Source: a virus (taxonomy: Duplodnaviria > Caudoviricetes). From it: a DNA stretch of 35,198 nt. Each line of letters opens with the position of its first letter. The stretch's first letter is position 1. This document shows, one piece after another, positions 1,004 to 20,802 of the stretch. The stretch is from IMG/VR virus record IMGVR_UViG_3300017909_001110, positions 1-35,198 of that record; one strand, 5' to 3'. The notes below the pieces were generated by a model, which saw nothing but the letters and a program-made list of their open reading frames with translations, made no database searches and was not told where the DNA came from. The position numbers and the translations under genes are program-made.

Positions 1004-1213
1004 ATGGAAAAAGAAGACACGATAGAGAGTATCGTAGACGAACTTCCTGTCTTATTAGTCAGACAAGCATACAAGAAACTAAAATCTGGTGATGATTTGA
1101 CAGCATCAGAGATGAAAGTATGCCTAGAAGTCTGTAAGACCTACAGTTCAGAAGATATTGTCCGTAAGGCAAACAACATTTTAGATGAAGTGCCTTTTGA
1201 TGTAGATGAATAA
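1004..1213 (+). CDS. terS: Terminase small subunit (T7 gp18-like, DNA maturase A), putative
   Basis: 69-aa helical protein immediately upstream of and overlapping terL, ending in acidic/PF tail; assigned mainly by position and size. Confidence 0.6.
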   Translation: MEKEDTIESIVDELPVLLVRQAYKKLKSGDDLTASEMKVCLEVCKTYSSEDIVRKANNILDEVPFDVDE

Positions 1214-2843
1214 AATACAGAATTTCAAAAACTTTCTGTATCTTTGTTGGAAACATCTAAACCTACCAGAGCCAACACCGATACAATACGATATTGCAGA
1301 TTATTTGCAGTCAGATGATAAGAGATTAGTCATAGAAGCCTTCAGAGGTGTAGGTAAAAGTTGGATTACAAGTGCTTTTGTCTGTCACCAATTACTATTA
1401 AATCCTAATAGGAATATTCTTGTGGTCTCAGCTAGTAAAACTAGAGCTGATGACTTCTCTACATTCACACAAAGGTTGATTAGTGAGATGCCATTACTGC
1501 AACACTTGCAACCTAGAGACAACCAGAGACACAGTAAGGTTAGTTTTGACGTTGCACCTGCCAGAGCTTCACACGCACCGAGTGTTAAGTCTATGGGTGT
1601 TACAGGTCAACTTACAGGTTCACGTGCAGATTTAATTATTGCTGATGACGTTGAGAGTGCAAACAACTCACAGACACAGTTAATGAGAGACAGATTAAGT
1701 GAAACTGTGAAGGAGTTTGATGCGATTATCAAACCAGAGGTTGGCAGAATTATATTCTTAGGAACACCACAAACTGAGATGAGTTTATATAACTCTTTAG
1801 AGGAAAGAGGGTTTAAGACCAGAATATGGTGTGCACTTTACCCTACAAAACAGCAAAGTATCGGGTACGGAAACAAGCTTGCTAAGATAATTGCTGATGT
1901 AGAAGACAAAGAGGGTAAACCTACTGACCCTCTAAGATTTAATGAAATAGATTTAATGGAACGACTAAGTTCGTACGGTAGAAGTGGTTTCAACTTGCAG
2001 TTTATGTTGGATACAACATTGAATGATGCAAACAGATACCCACTAAAACTCAACGACCTCATTATTGTTTCAGGCTGTTCATCGTGGGATGAAGCACCTG
2101 CAAAAATACAATGGGCTTCTGGTCAAGACCAAATCACAGCGATTAGCTCAGATATACCAAACGTGGGTCTTAAAGGAGATTATTTCACTTCATATCTGTA
2201 TATGAGTGAAGAGTTTGCGCCTTGGGAGGGAACAGTTATGTCAATTGACCCTTCTGGGCGCGGAGAAGACAGAACAGGCTATGCCGTTATCAAAATGTTG
2301 CACGGTGTGTTGTATCTAACAGCCGTAGGTGCACTTGAAGGTGGCTATAGTGACGAAACATTAGAACAATTGTCTCGTATAGCGAAGAAACAAGACGTTA
2401 ATTATGTGGTAATCGAGTCAAACTTCGGTGATGGAATGGCAACGCAGTTATTAAAACCTGTGATGTCACGCATACACCCTTGTGAGATAGAAGAGGTTAG
2501 ACACAGCATACAAAAAGAGAAGAGGATTATAGATACCTTAGAGCCCATTATGAATACACACAGGCTCGTAGTTGACGAAGATATTATCAAACAGGACTTT
2601 CAGTTACCGCCTGACCATCAGTTATTTAGACAGTTAACACGTATCACCCGCGATAAAGGCGCACTCAGGCACGATGACCAACTAGATGCACTTGCTATAG
2701 CTGCAAACTATTGGGTTGAACGTATGGACAGAGACCAAATCCTTGCATTCGACCAACACAAAGAAGAAATGCTCGATAGAGAGCTGGAATTATTTATGGA
2801 GACCGCAATTGGCGAAAAACCTAGAGGAGATAATTGGTTATGA
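1206..2843 (+). CDS. terL: Terminase large subunit (T7 gp19-like)
   Basis: Walker A AFRGVGKSW, TGSRADLIIADDVE Walker B, LGTPQ, nuclease IDPSGRG, ESNFGDG, HDDQLDALA. Confidence 0.97.
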   Translation: MNKIQNFKNFLYLCWKHLNLPEPTPIQYDIADYLQSDDKRLVIEAFRGVGKSWITSAFVCHQLLLNPNRNILVVSASKTRADDFSTFTQRLISEMPLLQHLQPRDNQRHSKVSFDVAPARASHAPSVKSMGVTGQLTGSRADLIIADDVESANNSQTQLMRDRLSETVKEFDAIIKPEVGRIIFLGTPQTEMSLYNSLEERGFKTRIWCALYPTKQQSIGYGNKLAKIIADVEDKEGKPTDPLRFNEIDLMERLSSYGRSGFNLQFMLDTTLNDANRYPLKLNDLIIVSGCSSWDEAPAKIQWASGQDQITAISSDIPNVGLKGDYFTSYLYMSEEFAPWEGTVMSIDPSGRGEDRTGYAVIKMLHGVLYLTAVGALEGGYSDETLEQLSRIAKKQDVNYVVIESNFGDGMATQLLKPVMSRIHPCEIEEVRHSIQKEKRIIDTLEPIMNTHRLVVDEDIIKQDFQLPPDHQLFRQLTRITRDKGALRHDDQLDALAIAANYWVERMDRDQILAFDQHKEEMLDRELELFMETAIGEKPRGDNWL

Positions 2844-3259
2844 ACTACGATGAAATCAAAGAGAGCATTCGTAAGCACGAAGGGTATCGACTAGAGCCCT
2901 ATAAATGCACGGAAGGTTTCTTAACAGGGGGAATAGGACACAAGATTAACGAGGGGGAAGAAATACCGACCACGGAAGAGGGGTGGTTGGAGTTATTTGA
3001 TAAGGATTTTGAAATAGCCCTTAATGGCGCTAGGAGACTCCTCAATGAAGAAGAAACACACCCAGAGGCATTTGGTATTGTGATTGAGATGTGCTTCCAA
3101 TTAGGCGAATTTGGAGTCAGTAAGTTCAAGAAGATGCTAGCAGCCATAGAAGCAAAGAATTACTTTGATGCTGGCTGGGAAATGAAGGACAGTAAGTGGA
3201 ACCAACAGACACCCCATAGGTGTGAAGCCCTGTCTTTACGGATGCGGAATATTTCATAA
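2840..3259 (+). CDS. Lysozyme/endolysin (GH24, T4-lysozyme-like)
   Basis: HEGYRLEPYKCTEGFLTGGIGH catalytic region (E...C...T), MCFQLG, EMKDSKWNQQTPHR; ATG at 2840 overlaps terL stop. Confidence 0.9.
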   Translation: MNYDEIKESIRKHEGYRLEPYKCTEGFLTGGIGHKINEGEEIPTTEEGWLELFDKDFEIALNGARRLLNEEETHPEAFGIVIEMCFQLGEFGVSKFKKMLAAIEAKNYFDAGWEMKDSKWNQQTPHRCEALSLRMRNIS

Positions 3260-3640
3260 AAAAATTTGAGTGGGTATATCGATATATGAGGGTCGATTTA
3301 CCCCCTTGGCGGTGGTCGTTTGCGCGTCAAAAAGTGGTTTTTAAGGTCATATAACGCGCAAAAACCGTCTATATACAATTGATGCGTTATCAATTGGTGG
3401 AACCGCGCATACTTTTATTACGCGTTTGTGTTCTATAGGGTCTATTTTTTTGTTTTTAGTTTAGTTCCCGTATTAGATATATGCCAAGCCTCCGTTACAT
3501 ATATATAGATATACTAAAGAGTATCTTAAGGAGTATCTAAAGCATATCCGAAGGTCTACCCATAAGAGACACCTGCACCACCTCCCCCAATTATTCATAC
3601 CTAATACACCCTGAAAACTTTTTTTATTTTTTTAATAATA
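3260..3640. other. Probable genome terminus / terminal-repeat region (end-to-start junction)
   Basis: Non-coding gap between last late gene and first early promoter, as in T7-like maps; AT-rich runs, GAGTATCT twice (~3519, ~3532), inverted repeats; exact ends not determinable. Confidence 0.6.
3376..3396. repeat. Inverted repeat CAATTGAT-N5-ATCAATTG matching attP core arms
   Basis: Perfect 8-bp arms; same arms and spacing as CTATTGAT-TACAA-ATCAATTG at 8564-8584. Confidence 0.8.
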
Positions 3641-3672: not shown

Positions 3673-3942
3673 TGATATCATCTAGTAACTAACTAGACAA
3701 AAAGGAGCATTTTCTGGCGTTTACCTCCTCAATACATAAAAACACCAGACAAGCGGGAGCGCAAAGTTAAATCTTGTAAAGTGCTCACTCCGCTACCTAG
3801 ACGGGATGTGACAGGTCTTAGTAGGTAGCATTTATTATATAGCCGTGAAGGTGTGGGGGGGGGGGCACCCCCGCTTCGCCTCCACACTTTCGCGCCTGTG
3901 TAATACAGGAAATCAAACAAACAATAACAAGGAGTAAAAATT

Positions 3943-4380
3943 ATGGGTACAAGATGTAACGTAATTATAAAATTTGGTGATACTAAAATAATTCTTTATC
4001 GCCATTATGACGGATACCTAGAAGTGACAGGGGAAAGTGTCTTAAACAAATTGAGACTTGCTGAACTTAGACACACTGAAACAGGCATTATTAATGTTGC
4101 CAAATTGGTGCAGTTGTTTCTAGTACAAGATAATGACTATAGACTTGAGACTGACTGCGCTTGCGATGGTGAGTTTGTCTATGAGATTAATCTTAAATCA
4201 GAATATCAGCACGGAGCACATTATAATTTTTCTTCGTTGGTTAGCCTTACTGTTTACCAGAGGGACAATTGGGAAGAAGATAATTATCTTAAATGGAGCT
4301 CTGCAAAATATGACTCTGTTGACTATGACTGCGATTTTGAAAAATTAATTAATAAATTGCAAAATAGGAGGGTGGCATAA
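3943..4380 (+). CDS. Hypothetical early protein
   Basis: AAGGAG RBS, 145 aa, MGTR...LYRHYDGY N-terminus. Confidence 0.85.
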   Translation: MGTRCNVIIKFGDTKIILYRHYDGYLEVTGESVLNKLRLAELRHTETGIINVAKLVQLFLVQDNDYRLETDCACDGEFVYEINLKSEYQHGAHYNFSSLVSLTVYQRDNWEEDNYLKWSSAKYDSVDYDCDFEKLINKLQNRRVA

Positions 4381-4463
4381 TGATAAGCGGAAACGATTTA
4401 ATCTTTGCTGTTCTACTTACTGTAGGCGGTGCAATTCTAATTCTTCAGGGGGTGTTATTATGA
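4380..4463 (+). CDS. 27-aa hydrophobic micro-protein
   Basis: AGGAGG RBS, TAATG coupling; MISGNDLIFAVLLTVGGAILILQGVLL*. Confidence 0.6.
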   Translation: MISGNDLIFAVLLTVGGAILILQGVLL

Positions 4464-4621
4464 ACTATATTGACACTCACAAGAACAGAATAAGAGAAAG
4501 CGCTAGGCGCAATCCGTTGAAAGCTTATTTCCTAGGCGGTTTCGAAACACTACCGCCAAAGCTACAAAAGGAAACAATCCGTTTTCTTAATAAGTGTAAG
4601 CGAACAAACAGGGAGGTTTAA
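4460..4621 (+). CDS. 53-aa basic hypothetical protein
   Basis: ATGA coupling, GGGGG RBS-like; MNYIDTHKNRIRESARRNPLKAYFLGGFETLPPKLQKETIRFLNKCKRTNREV*. Confidence 0.6.
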   Translation: MNYIDTHKNRIRESARRNPLKAYFLGGFETLPPKLQKETIRFLNKCKRTNREV

Positions 4622-4720
4622 ATGGATGAAGACTTATTAGAAGGTTTTCTCGAAGAGCTTGGTCTTGATGAATTTGAGATTGAGCAAGAAATCGAAAATT
4701 ATAATCAAGAAAATGATTAA
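4622..4720 (+). CDS. 32-aa very acidic micro-protein
   Basis: GGAGG RBS at 4612-4616; MDEDLLEGFLEELGLDEFEIEQEIENYNQEND*. Confidence 0.65.
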   Translation: MDEDLLEGFLEELGLDEFEIEQEIENYNQEND

Positions 4721-5185
4721 ATGAAACTAAGGGGGGCACGCGTTGCCCCTCTGGGCTTCGTTTAACTACGAAGACTAAGGAAGCAAGGTTGACACTTGAA
4801 AAGATTAAGTTCAATACAGGAAGTCATTAAATTAATTCCTGTCCCAATGAATTAACATTGTGGGTATAAACATTGCCTTGTTATCTTTACTAGACGAAGG
4901 CGCAAGCAGTAGGTTCAGCGCACGGACAATGAACCCAATTTACTAGACAGCAAGCTTTATTACTGCCGTAACGTGCACAGTTAGTGGTGGGAAGAGAGCT
5001 CGCTGTTTTTACTAGACGGCAGATACAGACCTAAGTGCACCCTGTAGAGGACAGACCTCTTTAAAAAACGTTGTGGTGGGTGCCTGTGTTTGTCGTCTTT
5101 TTTTAGTCGTTAGTAAACATCATCGTAAAACTACAATTGTTATGTCGCTGTGAGCCATAACAGCCGTTGCTGTTTACTAGACGGC
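4717..5185 (+). ncRNA. Hairpin-dense non-coding cassette 1 (candidate structured RNA)
   Basis: Back-to-back stems (4717-4764, 4816-4842, 4843-4864, 4873-4905, 4906-4966, 4973-5040, 5046-5060, 5138-5162, 5163-5185), several with G-U pairs; four TTTACTAGAC copies. Confidence 0.55.
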
Positions 5186-5214
5186 ACAATCAAACAAACA
5201 AACAAGGAGGACTA

Positions 5215-5424
5215 ATGGAAACTATATCAGACCGACTATGCAATGAAGCTTTTGGACTAATGCTTATCTGGAAGCAACGCATTGCACACGAACTAACAAA
5301 AGAAGCTCAGGAACTAGACCCACCTGATGCTGTTTATGTTGGGAACTTACTTATTGGATTACGTAAATTGGGTAAGCAGTATGGATGGGACTTAGATGAA
5401 TTAGTTAAGGAGGTAACAAAATGA
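5215..5424 (+). CDS. Hypothetical early protein
   Basis: AAGGAGG RBS before ATG 5215 (METISDRLCNEAFG...), preferred over the track start at 5167. Confidence 0.8.
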   Translation: METISDRLCNEAFGLMLIWKQRIAHELTKEAQELDPPDAVYVGNLLIGLRKLGKQYGWDLDELVKEVTK

Positions 5425-5696
5425 AATATCCAGACTTAGAAAATTTCTTAGTAAGAGCTTCAGATATGTATCAATACAATCTTGAACACTATCCTGAAGA
5501 AAAACCAACAATGCTAGGTGCTTTGAATGAAGTACTTGATGAAAGTTGGTGTTTAAAATTTGACAAATCAACGAAACGAAAAGAAGCAGAGCAAACAGTA
5601 CAAGATGCTCTTAATTGTTATGTTGAGGACTCAATAAGTGGAGATTTAGAGCAACAGCAAATTCTTAATGATGCATTTAAAACTCTAACAAATTAA
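5421..5696 (+). CDS. Hypothetical acidic early protein
   Basis: AAGGAGG RBS, ATGA overlap, 91 aa. Confidence 0.85.
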   Translation: MKYPDLENFLVRASDMYQYNLEHYPEEKPTMLGALNEVLDESWCLKFDKSTKRKEAEQTVQDALNCYVEDSISGDLEQQQILNDAFKTLTN

Positions 5697-5992
5697 ATGA
5701 TTTCAAGGGGGGTACACAAAAGTGCCCCTCTGGATGTCATTTAAAGGGGTTTTTTTCTTTCTACCCTGAAAATGGCAATTGCTGTTAACTTTTGGTATCT
5801 TTTTCTTTCTAGCCAGAAGTAACAGCTCATTGTTTCAATGCGCGGTTTACTAGACGGCATCCTACCTAATTATGCCTTTACTAGACGGCGCATTGTTTCC
5901 TTGTTTAACGCACACATTGCCTAGAAACTTCTTGGTTCTACTAGGCGGTGTGTGTGGGACAGCAGATACTAACAGGACTTGAGTTCTGTTAA
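5693..5992 (+). ncRNA. Hairpin-dense non-coding cassette 2 (candidate structured RNA)
   Basis: Stems 5693-5744, 5781-5826, 5836-5895 (CAATGCGC/GCGCATTG enclosing two motif copies), 5911-5954 (14 bp with two G-U pairs), 5971-5990. Confidence 0.55.
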
Positions 5993-6435: not shown

Positions 6436-6461
6436 ACTTTTTTATGAAGGAGATAGACCTG

Positions 6462-6806: not shown

Positions 6807-6966
6807 TAGAAGACGCAATCACGCACTAGGAAAAGTTTGGAGTTTTGTGAACAACAAAGCCCAAGCTGGTGCACCAAGAACTATTCTTGGATTGTTTCCA
6901 ACTAAAAAAACAGAACAAACAAATGGGGGGAGTTCAAATGCCGAAAGGAGTAATAGACCTAAGTGA
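6796..6966 (+). CDS. Possible 56-aa basic hypothetical protein
   Basis: GAGGT RBS, overlaps both neighbours; weak support. Confidence 0.3.
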   Translation: MSSSRRRNHALGKVWSFVNNKAQAGAPRTILGLFPTKKTEQTNGGSSNAERSNRPK

Positions 6967-7555
6967 AGGCAAAGGTGATGCACTACTTAAGATAGTAGAA
7001 ATAATGCGAGCACTTGATGCACGAATGGAAATGCAACAGTTCGCAGTATTTTTATATGTAGGTAGACACAGTATGCCGAACAGAGGTGTAACGATGCAGG
7101 AGATAGGTGAAGCTTTAAACTTACCGCAATCAACTACATCAAGAAATGTTCTTAGACTTTCAGAGCACGCAGGTATCAATAGATACACTAAGCAACGCAA
7201 CGTAGGTCTTGGACTATTGACGACAGAAGAAGACCCGAATGAGTTAAGGCGCAAAGTTGTGTTCTTATCTAAGTCGGGTGCAAAAATCTATGACGAGCTA
7301 ATGCGATATACAAAAGCTGATGCAACAAAAGTAGCAAGCAGTATGTCAAAAGAAATGTTAGCTGACTTAGACATCAAACTGTCTCAATTAAAAGAAGCAC
7401 AACGCGAAACAGAAAACTTTCGTAAATCGTTTGAAGTAACATTAAAGAATGTACAAAACGAGATTATGAAAAAACGAATTGCTAGCGGTACTGTTTCTTC
7501 AAAACGTGCGCAAGGGAAAACTTTTGCGCGGACTACAACAAACAAAAACAGATAG
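6938..7555 (+). CDS. MarR-like winged-helix regulator with C-terminal coiled coil
   Basis: VTMQEIGEALNLPQSTTSRNVLRL HTH and EDPNELRRKVVFLSKSG wing; GGGAG RBS before ATG 6938. Confidence 0.85.
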   Translation: MPKGVIDLSEGKGDALLKIVEIMRALDARMEMQQFAVFLYVGRHSMPNRGVTMQEIGEALNLPQSTTSRNVLRLSEHAGINRYTKQRNVGLGLLTTEEDPNELRRKVVFLSKSGAKIYDELMRYTKADATKVASSMSKEMLADLDIKLSQLKEAQRETENFRKSFEVTLKNVQNEIMKKRIASGTVSSKRAQGKTFARTTTNKNR

Positions 7556-7562
7556 GAGGACT

Positions 7563-8477
7563 ATGGACATTGTTCCAATACGAACCAATCATAAATTATT
7601 AATGAGTGTACACGCACGAGTTAAGAAGGAAGGTTGGAATAAAACGCAGGCTCGACTTGCAGAGCGCGCAATAGAAGACCACATCGGTAACATTGAAGTT
7701 AGCGAAGTGACAACAGCTACAATAGATGAACTAAAGCAAAAACTTTTTGCTACAGGAGTAGCAGAAGGTACGATTGACCGTACAATGACATCTATAAGTA
7801 AGTTGTTAAAGTATGCTCATCGTAGGCACGAACTCTACGGTGACTTTAAAATGCCTTACATCGAATACTGTAATCCTGACAATGCAAGAGACAGGTATAT
7901 GTCGGAGGAGGAAGAGTTAGAAATGATTAAGTGGTACCAACACAAAGGTTGGAATGACTTGCTCGACTTCAATCTCTTTGCCTTAGACACAGGTATGAGA
8001 AAAGGTGAAGGTCTACGATTTAAAGTAAAACAAGTGCACTTGCACACAAACAAAGAGGGAAGAGAACGTATGTATGTACGGTTGCTAGGCAACACATCTA
8101 CTAAGAAACATCAACGTAGTGTTCCTCTGACTGACCGTGCAGCAGCAATTGTTACGTCTTTAATTAAAGACCGTGAACCAGAAGACGTAGTGTTTGACCT
8201 AAATTATTGGACAATCGGTACGCGCTTCGACCAAGTAAAAGCTTTGATGGGGCTAGAGGAAGACAAGCAATTTGTGTTTCACACTTTGCGTCATACTTAT
8301 GCGTCAAGGCTAGTACAACAAGGTGTAAACTTGTACACCGTTGGTCAATTAATGGGTCATACAAACCCACGAATGACACAACGTTACGCACACTTTGCAC
8401 CAGAGCACTTGCTCGATGCTGTTGATGTACTCAACAGTACAACTTCACCAATTGATAACGTAGATAGCATCATCTAG
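7563..8477 (+). CDS. int: Tyrosine integrase
   Basis: DTGMRKGE, FHTLRHTYAS, MGHTNPRMTQRY catalytic motifs; AGGAGG RBS before ATG 7563. Confidence 0.96.
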   Translation: MDIVPIRTNHKLLMSVHARVKKEGWNKTQARLAERAIEDHIGNIEVSEVTTATIDELKQKLFATGVAEGTIDRTMTSISKLLKYAHRRHELYGDFKMPYIEYCNPDNARDRYMSEEEELEMIKWYQHKGWNDLLDFNLFALDTGMRKGEGLRFKVKQVHLHTNKEGRERMYVRLLGNTSTKKHQRSVPLTDRAAAIVTSLIKDREPEDVVFDLNYWTIGTRFDQVKALMGLEEDKQFVFHTLRHTYASRLVQQGVNLYTVGQLMGHTNPRMTQRYAHFAPEHLLDAVDVLNSTTSPIDNVDSII

Positions 8478-8532
8478 CATTGTCCTATTGATAATCAATT
8501 GGTATAATTAAAAATGAAAACTCTCAGAAAAG

Positions 8533-8585
8533 TGGTGCCCCCACACGGACTTGAACCGCGAACCTATTGATTACAAATCAATTGC
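8533..8585 (-). mobile_element. attP: attP core: 3' half of tRNA-Thr(UGU)
   Basis: Minus strand GCAATTGATTTGTAATCAATAGGTTCGCGGTTCAAGTCCGTGTGGGGGCACCA = anticodon arm (TGT), T arm, acceptor 3' strand and CCA; no D arm or 5' acceptor strand; directly downstream of int. Confidence 0.92.
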
Positions 8586-8681
8586 ACGCAGTTTAGCGGT
8601 GTTGGGATATAAAAGCAAGTTGCTAGTTTCCCGTGAAACATTCTGAGAGTTTTCCTTAAACAACTTAAGGAGAACTACTTT

Positions 8682-11126
8682 ATGGTTAAAATTATCGAAA
8701 CACTTCCAACTTTTCAGCAACAATACAAGTCTGAAAAAGAAATGAAGGAGCTGGGAATACAGCGAACATCCAAAAGACGACAATCGCATATCGCAAGAGG
8801 CGAGGAAAGCGTCACATCTTATGGCAAGGTTATGGTAGCCAATACCATTAGACCCCTTGCAAAACTCATCAATGAATACTTATCAGGGCAGGCTGACAAA
8901 GAAGGCGGCAGACCTGAAATAGCATATTTAAGGCTAAGTGAGGTAGAACCTGAAATTTCTGCACTAATCACAGCCAAGCATATAATCAATACAATTACTC
9001 AACAAAAGCCATTTACAGGCACCTGTATAGCTTTAGGGGGCAAAATAGAAACAGAGGTATCTCTTAAGAACTTTAAGAACCTTAACCCTGAGCTTTACGA
9101 GGCAGTAAAGACTGACCTAGACAAGCGCAGTTGGCACTATGCTTACAAGAAGCGAAAGCTACGAGAGAGTGCCAAGCGAGGTTTTGTAGAGTGGACTGAA
9201 TGGAGCAAGACAGACAAGCTACACGTAGGCATACGTCTGGTTGAGCTTATGGTGACAGCTACAGGACTGATTGAGATAGGTCACGATGTCATCAAGAAGA
9301 AACGTACAAAGGTTATCAGAGGCACCGTCAAAACCCACGAATGGATTAAGAAACGTAATTCTTGGAATGACCTACTGAACCCAGAGTATATGCCATCAAC
9401 TGAAATACCTAAGCAATGGACAACACCAGAAGATGGAGGCTATTGGACTGAGGAGATGCCACAACTCGACCTTGTTAAAATCCGCAACAAGCGATTTAAG
9501 CAGGAGCTGGAGAACTTCCGTATGCCAGAGGTCTATCAGGCAATCAATACTATGCAGAACACAGCTTTTAGAATTAACAAGTTTGTTTTAGATGTGATGC
9601 AGTTTGCGTGGGATAACCAAAAGCATTGGGGTCAACTCAATACAGGCTACAAGATAGATATCCCAAACAAACCACACGATATCGATACAAACGAGAAAGC
9701 TCGTAAGGAGTGGAAGAAACAAGCTGCAATAATTAATACGCAGAATAAACGTATTGAGAGTAAAAGCAGGTTGTTTGCAAAGGTGCTCTATCTTGCAGAT
9801 AAACACAAAGATGAAGAGCATCTTTACTATCCGCTTCAGCTAGACTTTAGAAGCAGAGTTTACTGCGTGCCTGCTTTTTTAAATTATCAATCGGTGGGTG
9901 GCGCAAAAGCCTTGCTTGAGTTTGCAAACGGTAAGGCTATTACCAAAGAAAACAAAGGCGACTTTTGGCTTGCAGTACACGGCGCTAATATGTGGGGCGA
10001 AGACAAATGTTCTTTGGCTGACAGAGTGAAGTGGGTTGCAGAAAACGAAGAGTGGATTGTAGCTTGCGGTGAAGACCCAATAGCAAACTTACAATGGACT
10101 GATGCTGACGAAGCATATCAGTTTCTTGCTTTCTGCAATGAGTGGTATAGATACAAACAAGCAGGGGATGGGTTTATTTCTCATATACCTGTATCTGTCG
10201 ATGGCAGTTGCAATGGTTTACAGCTCTATTCGCTGATGCTACGGGATGAAAAAGCAGGTAAACTCGTAAACCTAACTGTCACCGATGAACCTCAAGACAT
10301 CTACCAAGTTATTGCTGACAATGTGATAGAAAGGCTTCGCCAAGATGCAACAGACGGCAAGCCATATGCACAAGCTTGGCTCAACTATGGTGTCAAACGT
10401 TCAACAACAAAGCGAAGCATTATGACAATCTGCTACGGCAGTACACGTTACAGTTGCACAGACTTTGTTAAGGAAGACTTGGAGAAGCGCAAGGAGAAGG
10501 GTGAGAACCATCCGTTTGAAAGCGATATGCTGAAGCCTTGTGTCTATCTAGCAAGTCTTATCTGGGATAGCATAGGCGACAACCTCAAGTCAGCAAGAGA
10601 GGGTATGGACTTTCTGCAAAACATAGCTCGGATTGTTTGTAGAGAGCAGTTGCCTATACATTGGATTAATCCTGTTGGGTTTCCAATCTATCAATCATAC
10701 CCAGAGGTCAAGTCAATGCGTGTCAAAGCAATGTTAATGGGTGAGGTTATCAAACCTCGTTTAAACACAGAGTTAGACACAACAGATAGAAGACGAATGA
10801 TAAATGGTGTAGCTGCAAACTTTGTGCACAGCCTAGATGCTGCTTGTATGATGATTACAGTAAACCTTGCACACGAAAAAGGATTAGTTAACTTTTGCAA
10901 TGTACACGACAGCTTTGGTACGACTGCTGCAGATGTACAAACGTTGAGTGATACTTTGCGTGATGCTTTTGTCAAAGTGTTTTCAGAAAACGATGTGCTT
11001 GAAGATTTTAAAAATGGAATATTAAATTTAGTTCCTGACAAGTACAAAGACAAACTGCCTAACGTTCCTACTAAAGGTAATCTTGATATTAATTTATTAA
11101 AACAAAGTGAGTTCTTCTTTGCTTAA
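8682..11126 (+). CDS. Single-subunit DNA-directed RNA polymerase (T7 gp1-like)
   Basis: DFRSRVY, VDGSCNGLQ (motif A), RSTTKRSIMTICYG (motif B), NFVHSLDA, NVHDSFGT (motif C), C-terminal FFFA. Confidence 0.98.
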   Translation: MVKIIETLPTFQQQYKSEKEMKELGIQRTSKRRQSHIARGEESVTSYGKVMVANTIRPLAKLINEYLSGQADKEGGRPEIAYLRLSEVEPEISALITAKHIINTITQQKPFTGTCIALGGKIETEVSLKNFKNLNPELYEAVKTDLDKRSWHYAYKKRKLRESAKRGFVEWTEWSKTDKLHVGIRLVELMVTATGLIEIGHDVIKKKRTKVIRGTVKTHEWIKKRNSWNDLLNPEYMPSTEIPKQWTTPEDGGYWTEEMPQLDLVKIRNKRFKQELENFRMPEVYQAINTMQNTAFRINKFVLDVMQFAWDNQKHWGQLNTGYKIDIPNKPHDIDTNEKARKEWKKQAAIINTQNKRIESKSRLFAKVLYLADKHKDEEHLYYPLQLDFRSRVYCVPAFLNYQSVGGAKALLEFANGKAITKENKGDFWLAVHGANMWGEDKCSLADRVKWVAENEEWIVACGEDPIANLQWTDADEAYQFLAFCNEWYRYKQAGDGFISHIPVSVDGSCNGLQLYSLMLRDEKAGKLVNLTVTDEPQDIYQVIADNVIERLRQDATDGKPYAQAWLNYGVKRSTTKRSIMTICYGSTRYSCTDFVKEDLEKRKEKGENHPFESDMLKPCVYLASLIWDSIGDNLKSAREGMDFLQNIARIVCREQLPIHWINPVGFPIYQSYPEVKSMRVKAMLMGEVIKPRLNTELDTTDRRRMINGVAANFVHSLDAACMMITVNLAHEKGLVNFCNVHDSFGTTAADVQTLSDTLRDAFVKVFSENDVLEDFKNGILNLVPDKYKDKLPNVPTKGNLDINLLKQSEFFFA

Positions 11127-20284: not shown

Positions 20285-20524
20285 ATGTGTCTAGGAGGCA
20301 ATAACCCACCAGCTCCACAACCAGCTCCTGAACCACCTCAACCCGTAATCAATGCATCACCAATTGGTGACACATTAGCACCTGAATTACAAATTGCGGA
20401 TGAGGCGATGGATGAAGCGGCTAAAAAGAAGCTGAAAAAGAAAAAGGGAACTTCACAACTTAACACTCAACTTTCATCTGGTCTTAACATACCAGCTACA
20501 TCAAGCGGGATTAACGTAGCATAA
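20285..20524 (+). CDS. Small virion protein (gp6.7/7.3-like)
   Basis: MCLGG, Pro-rich, KKKGTSQL, SGINV C-terminus; AGGAGG RBS. Confidence 0.75.
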   Translation: MCLGGNNPPAPQPAPEPPQPVINASPIGDTLAPELQIADEAMDEAAKKKLKKKKGTSQLNTQLSSGLNIPATSSGINVA

Positions 20525-20802
20525 TGTGTATGGGAGGCGGCGGCGGAGGCGGCTTCGGCGGAGGAGGCGGCTTTAGTGGCGGAGGCGGCTTCGGTAATAT
20601 AGGTAACGTAGGAAGTATATCAGGCTTCGGTGGCGGTGATGGCAACTTAGTATCAGCTCCTGTTAGCGGAATAATTGCGCCTGTAAACCCTAATGTCAAA
20701 GAAGGTGGAAAAGAATTTTTAGGTTCTAAGCCTGGCTTTGATGAAAAGAAACTGACTGCACTCGCAAACAAAGCAGGCAAACAAAGTCTGTACGTTAGTT
20801 AA
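20524..20802 (+). CDS. Glycine-rich small virion protein
   Basis: MCMG-(GGGGGF)n, GKQSLYV C-terminus; TAATG coupling both sides. Confidence 0.7.
   Translation: MCMGGGGGGGFGGGGGFSGGGGFGNIGNVGSISGFGGGDGNLVSAPVSGIIAPVNPNVKEGGKEFLGSKPGFDEKKLTALANKAGKQSLYVS
20533..20595 (+). repeat. In-frame 18-bp tandem repeat (GGGGGF x3)
   Basis: GGCGGCGGAGGCGGCTTC / GGCGGAGGAGGCGGCTTT / AGTGGCGGAGGCGGCTTC. Confidence 0.8.

Follow-up and report, generated by a model that had tools for sequence, protein, structure and literature searches.

Why should a T7-like phage carry, close to the end of its linear genome, a palindrome whose arms repeat those of its attP? The question reaches beyond one genome: pelagiphages and cyanopodoviruses abound in the sea, integrate and have linear genomes with short repeats, and the route by which these genomes become circles is not stated in the accessible text of the papers that describe them. 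The window analyzed here, the whole stretch of 35,198 nucleotides, belongs to an HTVC019P-type pelagiphage, a marine T7-like phage. Its source record, a linear virus contig of 35.2 kb, is 85% complete, and the junction of the genome ends therefore lies inside the window.

Genes in the window follow the order terL, lysozyme, a non-coding stretch, early ORFs, marR, int and RNAP. Those on the plus strand include the terminase large subunit (1206..2843; 84.5% identity to HTVC109P), the lysozyme/endolysin (2840..3259), which is the last late gene ahead of the terminal repeat, a MarR-like regulator with a long C-terminal extension (6938..7555, its start chosen by the ribosome-binding site), a tyrosine integrase of 304 aa (7563..8477) and, by gene annotation, a T7-like RNA polymerase (8682..11126). 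The integrase (Int) is ~41% identical to HTVC019P-type integrases and consists of an N-terminal core-binding domain followed by a catalytic domain with intact catalytic residues (R146, H240-x-x-R243, H266, Y275); domain searches detected no arm-binding domain, and the nearest PDB chains by sequence are 5c6k, XerA/XerD and the HP1 integrase. The MarR protein is ~205 aa long, compared with ~110 aa in HTVC019P and HTVC109P. Elsewhere, a short glycine-rich repetitive ORF (20524-20802) precedes the head-tail adaptor, and a base at 6438 is missing from the contigs of three runs, such that the window may hold an assembly insertion. The palindrome TCCTTAA-ACAAC-TTAAGGA (8653-8671) overlaps the RNAP ribosome-binding site, as similar A/T palindromes do in relatives, and is a possible repressor operator or translational hairpin.

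Two palindromes with common arms

The palindrome near the genome end (3376..3396), hereafter the end site, has 8-bp inverted arms around GCGTT and is a predicted Int recombination site. It reads CAATTGAT-GCGTT-ATCAATTG, and the attP core reads CTATTGAT-TACAA-ATCAATTG (8564-8584), so that both have the form ATTGA-N7-TCAAT, with TGCGTTA as the centre of the end site and TTACAAA as that of attP. This pair, with its common arms and spacing and its different centres, had been pointed out in the initial annotation, and we found it again at the same positions. Its shared pattern has exactly two matches in the 35,198 bases, against a mean of 0.02 in shuffled sequence, none of 100 shuffles reaching two; likewise, the arms of the end site match attP at 12 of 12, a score found in just two of 146 record windows, which are those of the end site and attP.

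The attP core is part of a tRNA. Positions 8532..8584 on the minus strand form the 3′ half of a tRNA-Thr(UGU) in which the core is the anticodon stem-loop; 8536-8584 of that strand matches Rfam RF00005 (35.5 bits, E 3.8e-6), and the anticodon loop UUUGUAA within this 3′ half identifies the attP palindrome as the anticodon stem of tRNA-Thr(UGU). In every pelagiphage with a mapped attP the site is found between int and RNAP, as far as the accessible text goes (bioRxiv 10.1101/410191), and the attP of the window occupies the same interval. Near it, in the 3′ end of the integrase gene, is an accessory pair of inverted core-type half-sites, CCAATTGAT ... ATCAATTGG, flanking a small palindrome at the centre (8446..8502). 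This pair likely belongs to attP and may stand in for arm-type sites: it is present in all seven Thr-group records, varies together with the core arms in the relative L056, and is absent from the four attP-less records compared. It also contains an inverted copy of positions 3385-3399, which measures 13 bases by script (8448) and 15 bases when read by eye (8446-8460).

Searches for a host partner returned little. A 37-nt attB pattern had no match in 301 sampled genomes, no SAR11 prophage appeared among 79 integrase loci in genome contigs, and the abundant contigs in four runs that match 8533-8582 contain no clear junction to a host. The exact 21-mer of the end site occurs in one IMG/VR contig only, and exact searches are therefore of no help in finding relatives.

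Position of the end site in the terminal repeat

The initial annotation had made its proposal depend on the palindrome lying within the terminal repeat, and it does fall inside the direct terminal repeat that we infer at ~3277-3443. One copy of this repeat is present at the assembled junction (3277..3443, with the left edge at 3277-3279), placed by alignment to the exact 162-bp end repeat of HTVC019P, the one record with exact end repeats among six GenBank records tested. In this alignment the HTVC019P palindrome AAGGA-CAGCATA-TCCTT corresponds column for column to the end site of the window. Logan contigs add weak hints, in that one begins at 3277 and the piece 3241-3397 has a depth of 16.7, compared with 10.5-11.2 in its flanks. 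The right edge carries a TCT(A/G)+T-run landmark (3440..3451, plus strand) that is kept in relatives; T7 has TATCTGTT directly after base 160. The landmark is likely the concatemer-junction (CJ) signal, a function that we presume for it. The single-strand fold of the repeat has a z-score of -2.9, due in part to the palindrome itself.

A second phage offers a comparison. P-SSP7 has a 206-bp repeat that was mapped experimentally, according to the accessible text (PMC3350473), and the palindrome GCTAGA-TATGTAA-TCCAGC lies in its first 80 bases and hence within that repeat. By homology to the 162-bp repeat of HTVC019P and the 206-bp repeat of P-SSP7, then, the end site is assigned to the direct terminal redundancy. 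A 512-bp repeat in RHEph01 was set aside as an assembly overlap, being ~700 bp from the end landmark and spanning coding sequence.

The region past the repeat holds further signals. Candidate phage RNAP promoters occur at 3464, 19830 and 34505, GTTCCCGTATTAGATA directly past the repeat and AAGTACCCCTCTTAGAAG at the two others, and relatives have AAGTTCCCATA at the same post-repeat place and also before RNAP. Words of the TACTAGACGG type occur ten times on the plus strand of the early region (3693-5948), the exact 8-mer having no occurrence on the minus strand; they are possibly a regulator or DNA-entry signal.

Co-variation of the end site with attP

That the end-site arms would track the attP arms in relatives with other tRNA targets was an expectation of the initial annotation that holds for phages targeting Cys, Phe, Leu-TAA, Leu-TAG and Arg-TCT. 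Phages of the Cys, Phe and Leu-TAA groups have AGGA-N7-TCC at both the end site and attP, and those of the Arg-TCT group have TCGGT-N7-ACC at both, the Arg-TCT phage HTVC120P having TCGGT-N7-ACCG at the end site and TCGGT-N7-ACCC at attP. The end site of HTVC011P is CTGGT-N7-ACCAG and its attP has the left arm CTGGT; L056 has CGGA/TCG arms at both sites, and in MedDCM S28-C10 a 10-base left arm is common to the two.

To put numbers on this, 27 hand-located attP cores were scored against 240-nt end windows. Cognate pairs averaged 9.75 across 16 arm classes picked by hand, compared with 8.35 off the diagonal (permutation p 1.5e-5), a p-value that is optimistic, like that for the clusters below, because the choice of scoring rules, attP cores and class representatives was made by hand post hoc and related phages are not independent. 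Seven of the 16 classes beat all 200 shuffles. The ProddE score was equalled in five of 200 shuffles and came from a position other than the site found by eye; four classes were modest against shuffles (L056, L086, L303, P-SSP7), and four were no better than shuffles when scored against their own attP arms (L159, L153, LUZ100, S-TIP37). The cognate repeat was top in just eight of the 16 rows, strictly so in four, because many targets share GGA..TCC. With respect to spacing the result is sharper: the score peaks at a spacer of 7 (9.75) and lies between 8.0 and 8.6 at all other spacers from 1 to 13, and the 7-bp spacing of the end site is that of a crossover core and is kept across lineages.

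The centres behave differently from the arms. Bases 1-3 of the end-site centre mismatch the attP centre in both orientations in all 22 pairs examined, five of the 27 having been dropped from this comparison because their best-scoring position was no credible site. The 12 Cys-group records compared all have the same attP centre, and their end-site centre has four variants within fixed AGGA/TCCT arms. Such a variable centre fits a site whose partner would be its own copy, although a plain binding site would allow the same.

Some relatives fit the pattern less well. L300 and L301 are not part of the matrix, as neither has an identified tRNA loop, and the end site of L300 is discordant in that it mismatches the best att-like palindrome of that phage. 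These two are sister phages with different end-site arms, and the att-like palindrome of L300 fits the end site of L301. A clade of four (L154, L159, L277, L278) has one degenerate end-site arm, BB8 has a partial end site, and S-TIP37 and P-SSP7 each have a GA-N7-TC palindrome near the left end with a weak arm match to their own attP. The RHEph01 site, CCAGA-N7-TCTG, was seen by eye and lies outside the top eight by score; CRP-361 has an end palindrome and no identified attP.

Co-occurrence with the integrase gene

A core-type end site is present in 28 of 35 clusters with int and in none of 13 clusters without it (Fisher p 4e-7, under a presence rule that was written post hoc and fires in 24% of shuffled windows, the clusters being not fully independent). 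Of the seven int-bearing clusters that were missed, three (ProddE, L153, L303) have a candidate beyond the 180-nt window, L166 has a CA/TG core, and the other three have one degenerate arm. The phages without int form three separate lineages among the site-bearing phages in the terL tree, and the end site is absent from int-less phages whose terminase is 82-83% identical. The end site thus co-occurs with int and follows neither marR nor attP nor the terminase lineage.

Integrases that have no attP are informative here. In 33 of 137 int-RNAP loci (a redundant set) the gap between the two genes is at most 64 nt and holds little beyond a promoter and a ribosome-binding site; these 33 loci have no attP in the gap and no marR match, and the catalytic residues of their integrases are intact. 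Int abuts RNAP in this way, with neither attP nor marR and under purifying selection, in at least two pelagiphage-like clades (L080, L168, L170, L141, L270 and others). For attP-less integrases, the 21 pairs of one clade have a dN/dS of 0.09-0.16 and the 11 computable pairs (of 15) of the other have 0.04-0.16, similar to the 0.08-0.20 of integrases with an attP. Among seven attP-less records that include the end region, five have GGA-N7-TCC, one has CGCA-N7-TGCG and one is degenerate; two such records that are 99-100% complete have a perfect end site with 6-bp arms and nothing else that scores above 8/10. The main grounds for concluding that no attP lies elsewhere in these genomes are the int-RNAP gap of 52-55 nt and the scan for arms, given that the tRNA searches were insensitive: the Rfam search for attP remnants gave an attP-bearing control just E 0.29, and a tRNA-word regular expression recovered five of eight such controls. 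Syn5 has its int elsewhere, no visible attP after it, and CTAGA-TGTCTGA-TCTAA at 133-149.

Because the site is kept where marR and attP are missing and is absent where int is missing, it appears tied to Int and not to MarR or attP, and the pattern as a whole suggests that a catalytic function at the genome ends is under selection. It is highly improbable that the palindrome serves MarR, the terminase or a host protein instead, or that it arose by chance. Genome ends are indeed rich in signals, and GA-N7-TC is a short motif, as the 24% of matching shuffled windows makes plain; against this, the arms follow those of phage attP and the chance expectation in the window is 0.02. A MarR operator was rejected on the retention of the site where marR is lost, and a terminase signal on its absence from the int-less phages with the 82-83% identical terminase noted above.

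It is also worth considering that the end site might be an alternative attP with some host site as its partner. Its full arms and correct spacing would permit this, and it would give attP-less phages a route of integration. In the second clade, two of 11 loci have a full tRNA-Cys upstream of int (L141:2438-2511 and L143:1442-1515), which can be counted in favor of such a partner, or attP may itself have moved to this tRNA in L141 and L143; its anticodon stem is unlike the Int arms and resembles the replacement tRNA of HTVC019P. Nevertheless, we regard an alternative attP as very unlikely, for the end-site centre varies among close relatives whose true attP centre stays the same. It is also at odds with the mapped attP sites of pelagiphages, all of them between int and RNAP, and in S-TIP37 deletion of attP abolished the junctions tested, according to the accessible text (bioRxiv 10.1101/410191; PMC8776855).

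A more serious alternative is that Int binds the end site without recombining it, shielding the ends from host exonucleases, hindering terminase cutting or tuning early promoters. Co-variation and co-occurrence show recognition and not catalysis, a variable centre is as compatible with a plain binding site as with a recombining one, and the core-type half-sites of other spacing at the 3′ end of int are probably for binding only. However, across lineages the end site has retained a crossover spacing of 7, which the accessory pair has not, and attP-less integrases retain R-H-R-H-Y and a low dN/dS although no other cognate site was found for them. Moreover, a search within 60 bases of the end site revealed no sigma-70-like promoter, on which ground a promoter reading was rejected. 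Taken together, these points make a binding-only role unlikely.

A possible route to a circular genome

Comparison of sequences gives the position in the repeat homologue, the co-variation of the arms, the 7-bp spacing, the differing centre and the co-occurrence with int. The reading that we favor, and consider likely, is that Int recombines the two copies of the end site to form a circular genome, which is then integrated by attP x attB recombination. After DNA entry each end would bear one copy of the site, in direct orientation and with an identical centre, as both repeats are copied from one template. Int expressed early would cut out a circle that retains one repeat, leaving a linear by-product of ~165 bp, and integration between attP and the tRNA-Thr gene would come after the circle had formed. 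Strand exchange by lambda-family integrases requires matching overlaps between partner sites, and a different, asymmetric centre would for this reason keep the end x end reaction apart from attP x attB. The lytic end-joining genes (an ssDNA-annealing protein and an exonuclease) lie downstream of RNAP and, judging from T7 biology, would be silent under repression of lysis; this would account for a site-specific route being needed. Within the attP-less lineages, Int and the end site would work as a stand-alone Cre/lox-like pair, with circular persistence, end protection or multimer resolution as its possible roles.

Alternatively, replicated DNA could be the main substrate of Int, which would break dimers or concatemers down into unit circles or join copies together. 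Each concatemer junction would hold one site in direct orientation, the end site persists in the lineages without attP, and Cre and Xer serve in this manner. Yet a linear genome with direct terminal repeats must become a circle before a tyrosine integrase can integrate it, and the int-less sister phages have no site. In addition, deletion of int from S-TIP37 left a normal latent period and unchanged lytic fitness in the accessible text (PMC8776855), and the end reaction is therefore not needed for lytic growth in that phage. We judge a role mainly on replicated DNA to be quite unlikely.

Implications

The predicted Int site in the terminal repeats is real and conserved, and is probably undescribed. 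In a search that covered papers outside subscription, no title or abstract describes such a site or end joining driven by Int, and the word "circular" has no occurrence in the accessible text on LUZ100. With somewhat less assurance than we attach to the circularization reaction itself, we lean toward a broader proposal from these genome comparisons: that integrase-bearing T7-like phages share an unrecognized end-joining system in which one integrase works two orthogonal site pairs, and that several abundant marine lineages lacking attP and repressor keep Int together with the end site. Its scope would take in pelagiphages, cyanopodoviruses, rhizobial, roseobacter and other lineages, with the end site co-evolving with each tRNA target.

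If this is true, an integrase gene in an attP-less lineage would mark circular, non-integrated persistence or end protection and not a prophage, which offers a possible reason for T7-like phages to keep an integrase without attP and a caution against treating integrase genes as markers of lysogeny. It would also be a specific and testable answer to how these linear genomes close, and int and attP mutants of S-TIP37 already exist. One can further imagine a use in genome engineering for small natural integrases that may work two site pairs without cross-reaction.

Comparison with known recombination systems

It is informative to set the end site beside recombination systems that are already understood. 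In phage P1, loxP has inverted arms and an asymmetric centre and lies in terminally redundant DNA, where Cre recombines end with end into a circle and also resolves dimers. The end site resembles it as a putative site of a tyrosine recombinase that lies in a terminal redundancy and combines inverted arms with an asymmetric centre. In contrast, Cre is specialized as a resolvase and its site measures 34 bp, and the enzyme here would be a tRNA-targeting integrase; the end-site arms derive from a tRNA anticodon stem and, unlike in P1, the repeat is a fixed direct terminal repeat of ~165 bp. There is no Cre among 15 PDB matches to the integrase, and the arms are 8 bp around 5 (or 7+7+7), not 13-8-13. 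The end site would thus be lox-like in its working and outside the Cre/loxP family.

The nearest known relatives, the HTVC019P-type phages, are alike in phage group, in a tyrosine integrase upstream of RNAP, in an attP within the int-RNAP interval and in the use of a tRNA target. The targets named for them in the accessible text are Cys, Leu and Arg, compared with Thr(UGU) in the phage of the window, and that text does not contain the word "circular" or describe a second site (bioRxiv 10.1101/410191). Likewise, S-TIP37 and P-SSP7 have linear genomes with direct terminal repeats and integrate into tRNA genes in a manner that depends on int and attP, and in the accessible text of the S-TIP37 article neither "circular" nor "terminal repeat" occurs and the closure of the linear genome is not addressed (PMC8776855, PMC3350473).

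Among the integrases of more distant phages, those of lambda, P2 and HP1 offer the closest parallel in the core, with inverted core-type half-sites around a 7-bp overlap and, in HP1, a crossover in a tRNA anticodon loop. They are heterobivalent enzymes that use arm-type sites, and these phages circularize through cohesive ends and not through Int; their integrases have an arm-binding domain, and none was detected N-terminally in the integrase of the window. XerCD, which acts at dif, cer and psi, is encoded by the host, has two subunits and resolves multimers at sites with a 6-8-bp centre. It is alike in that one recombinase serves several sites, and differs in that here a single phage enzyme would do so, with a second site that co-varies with attP.
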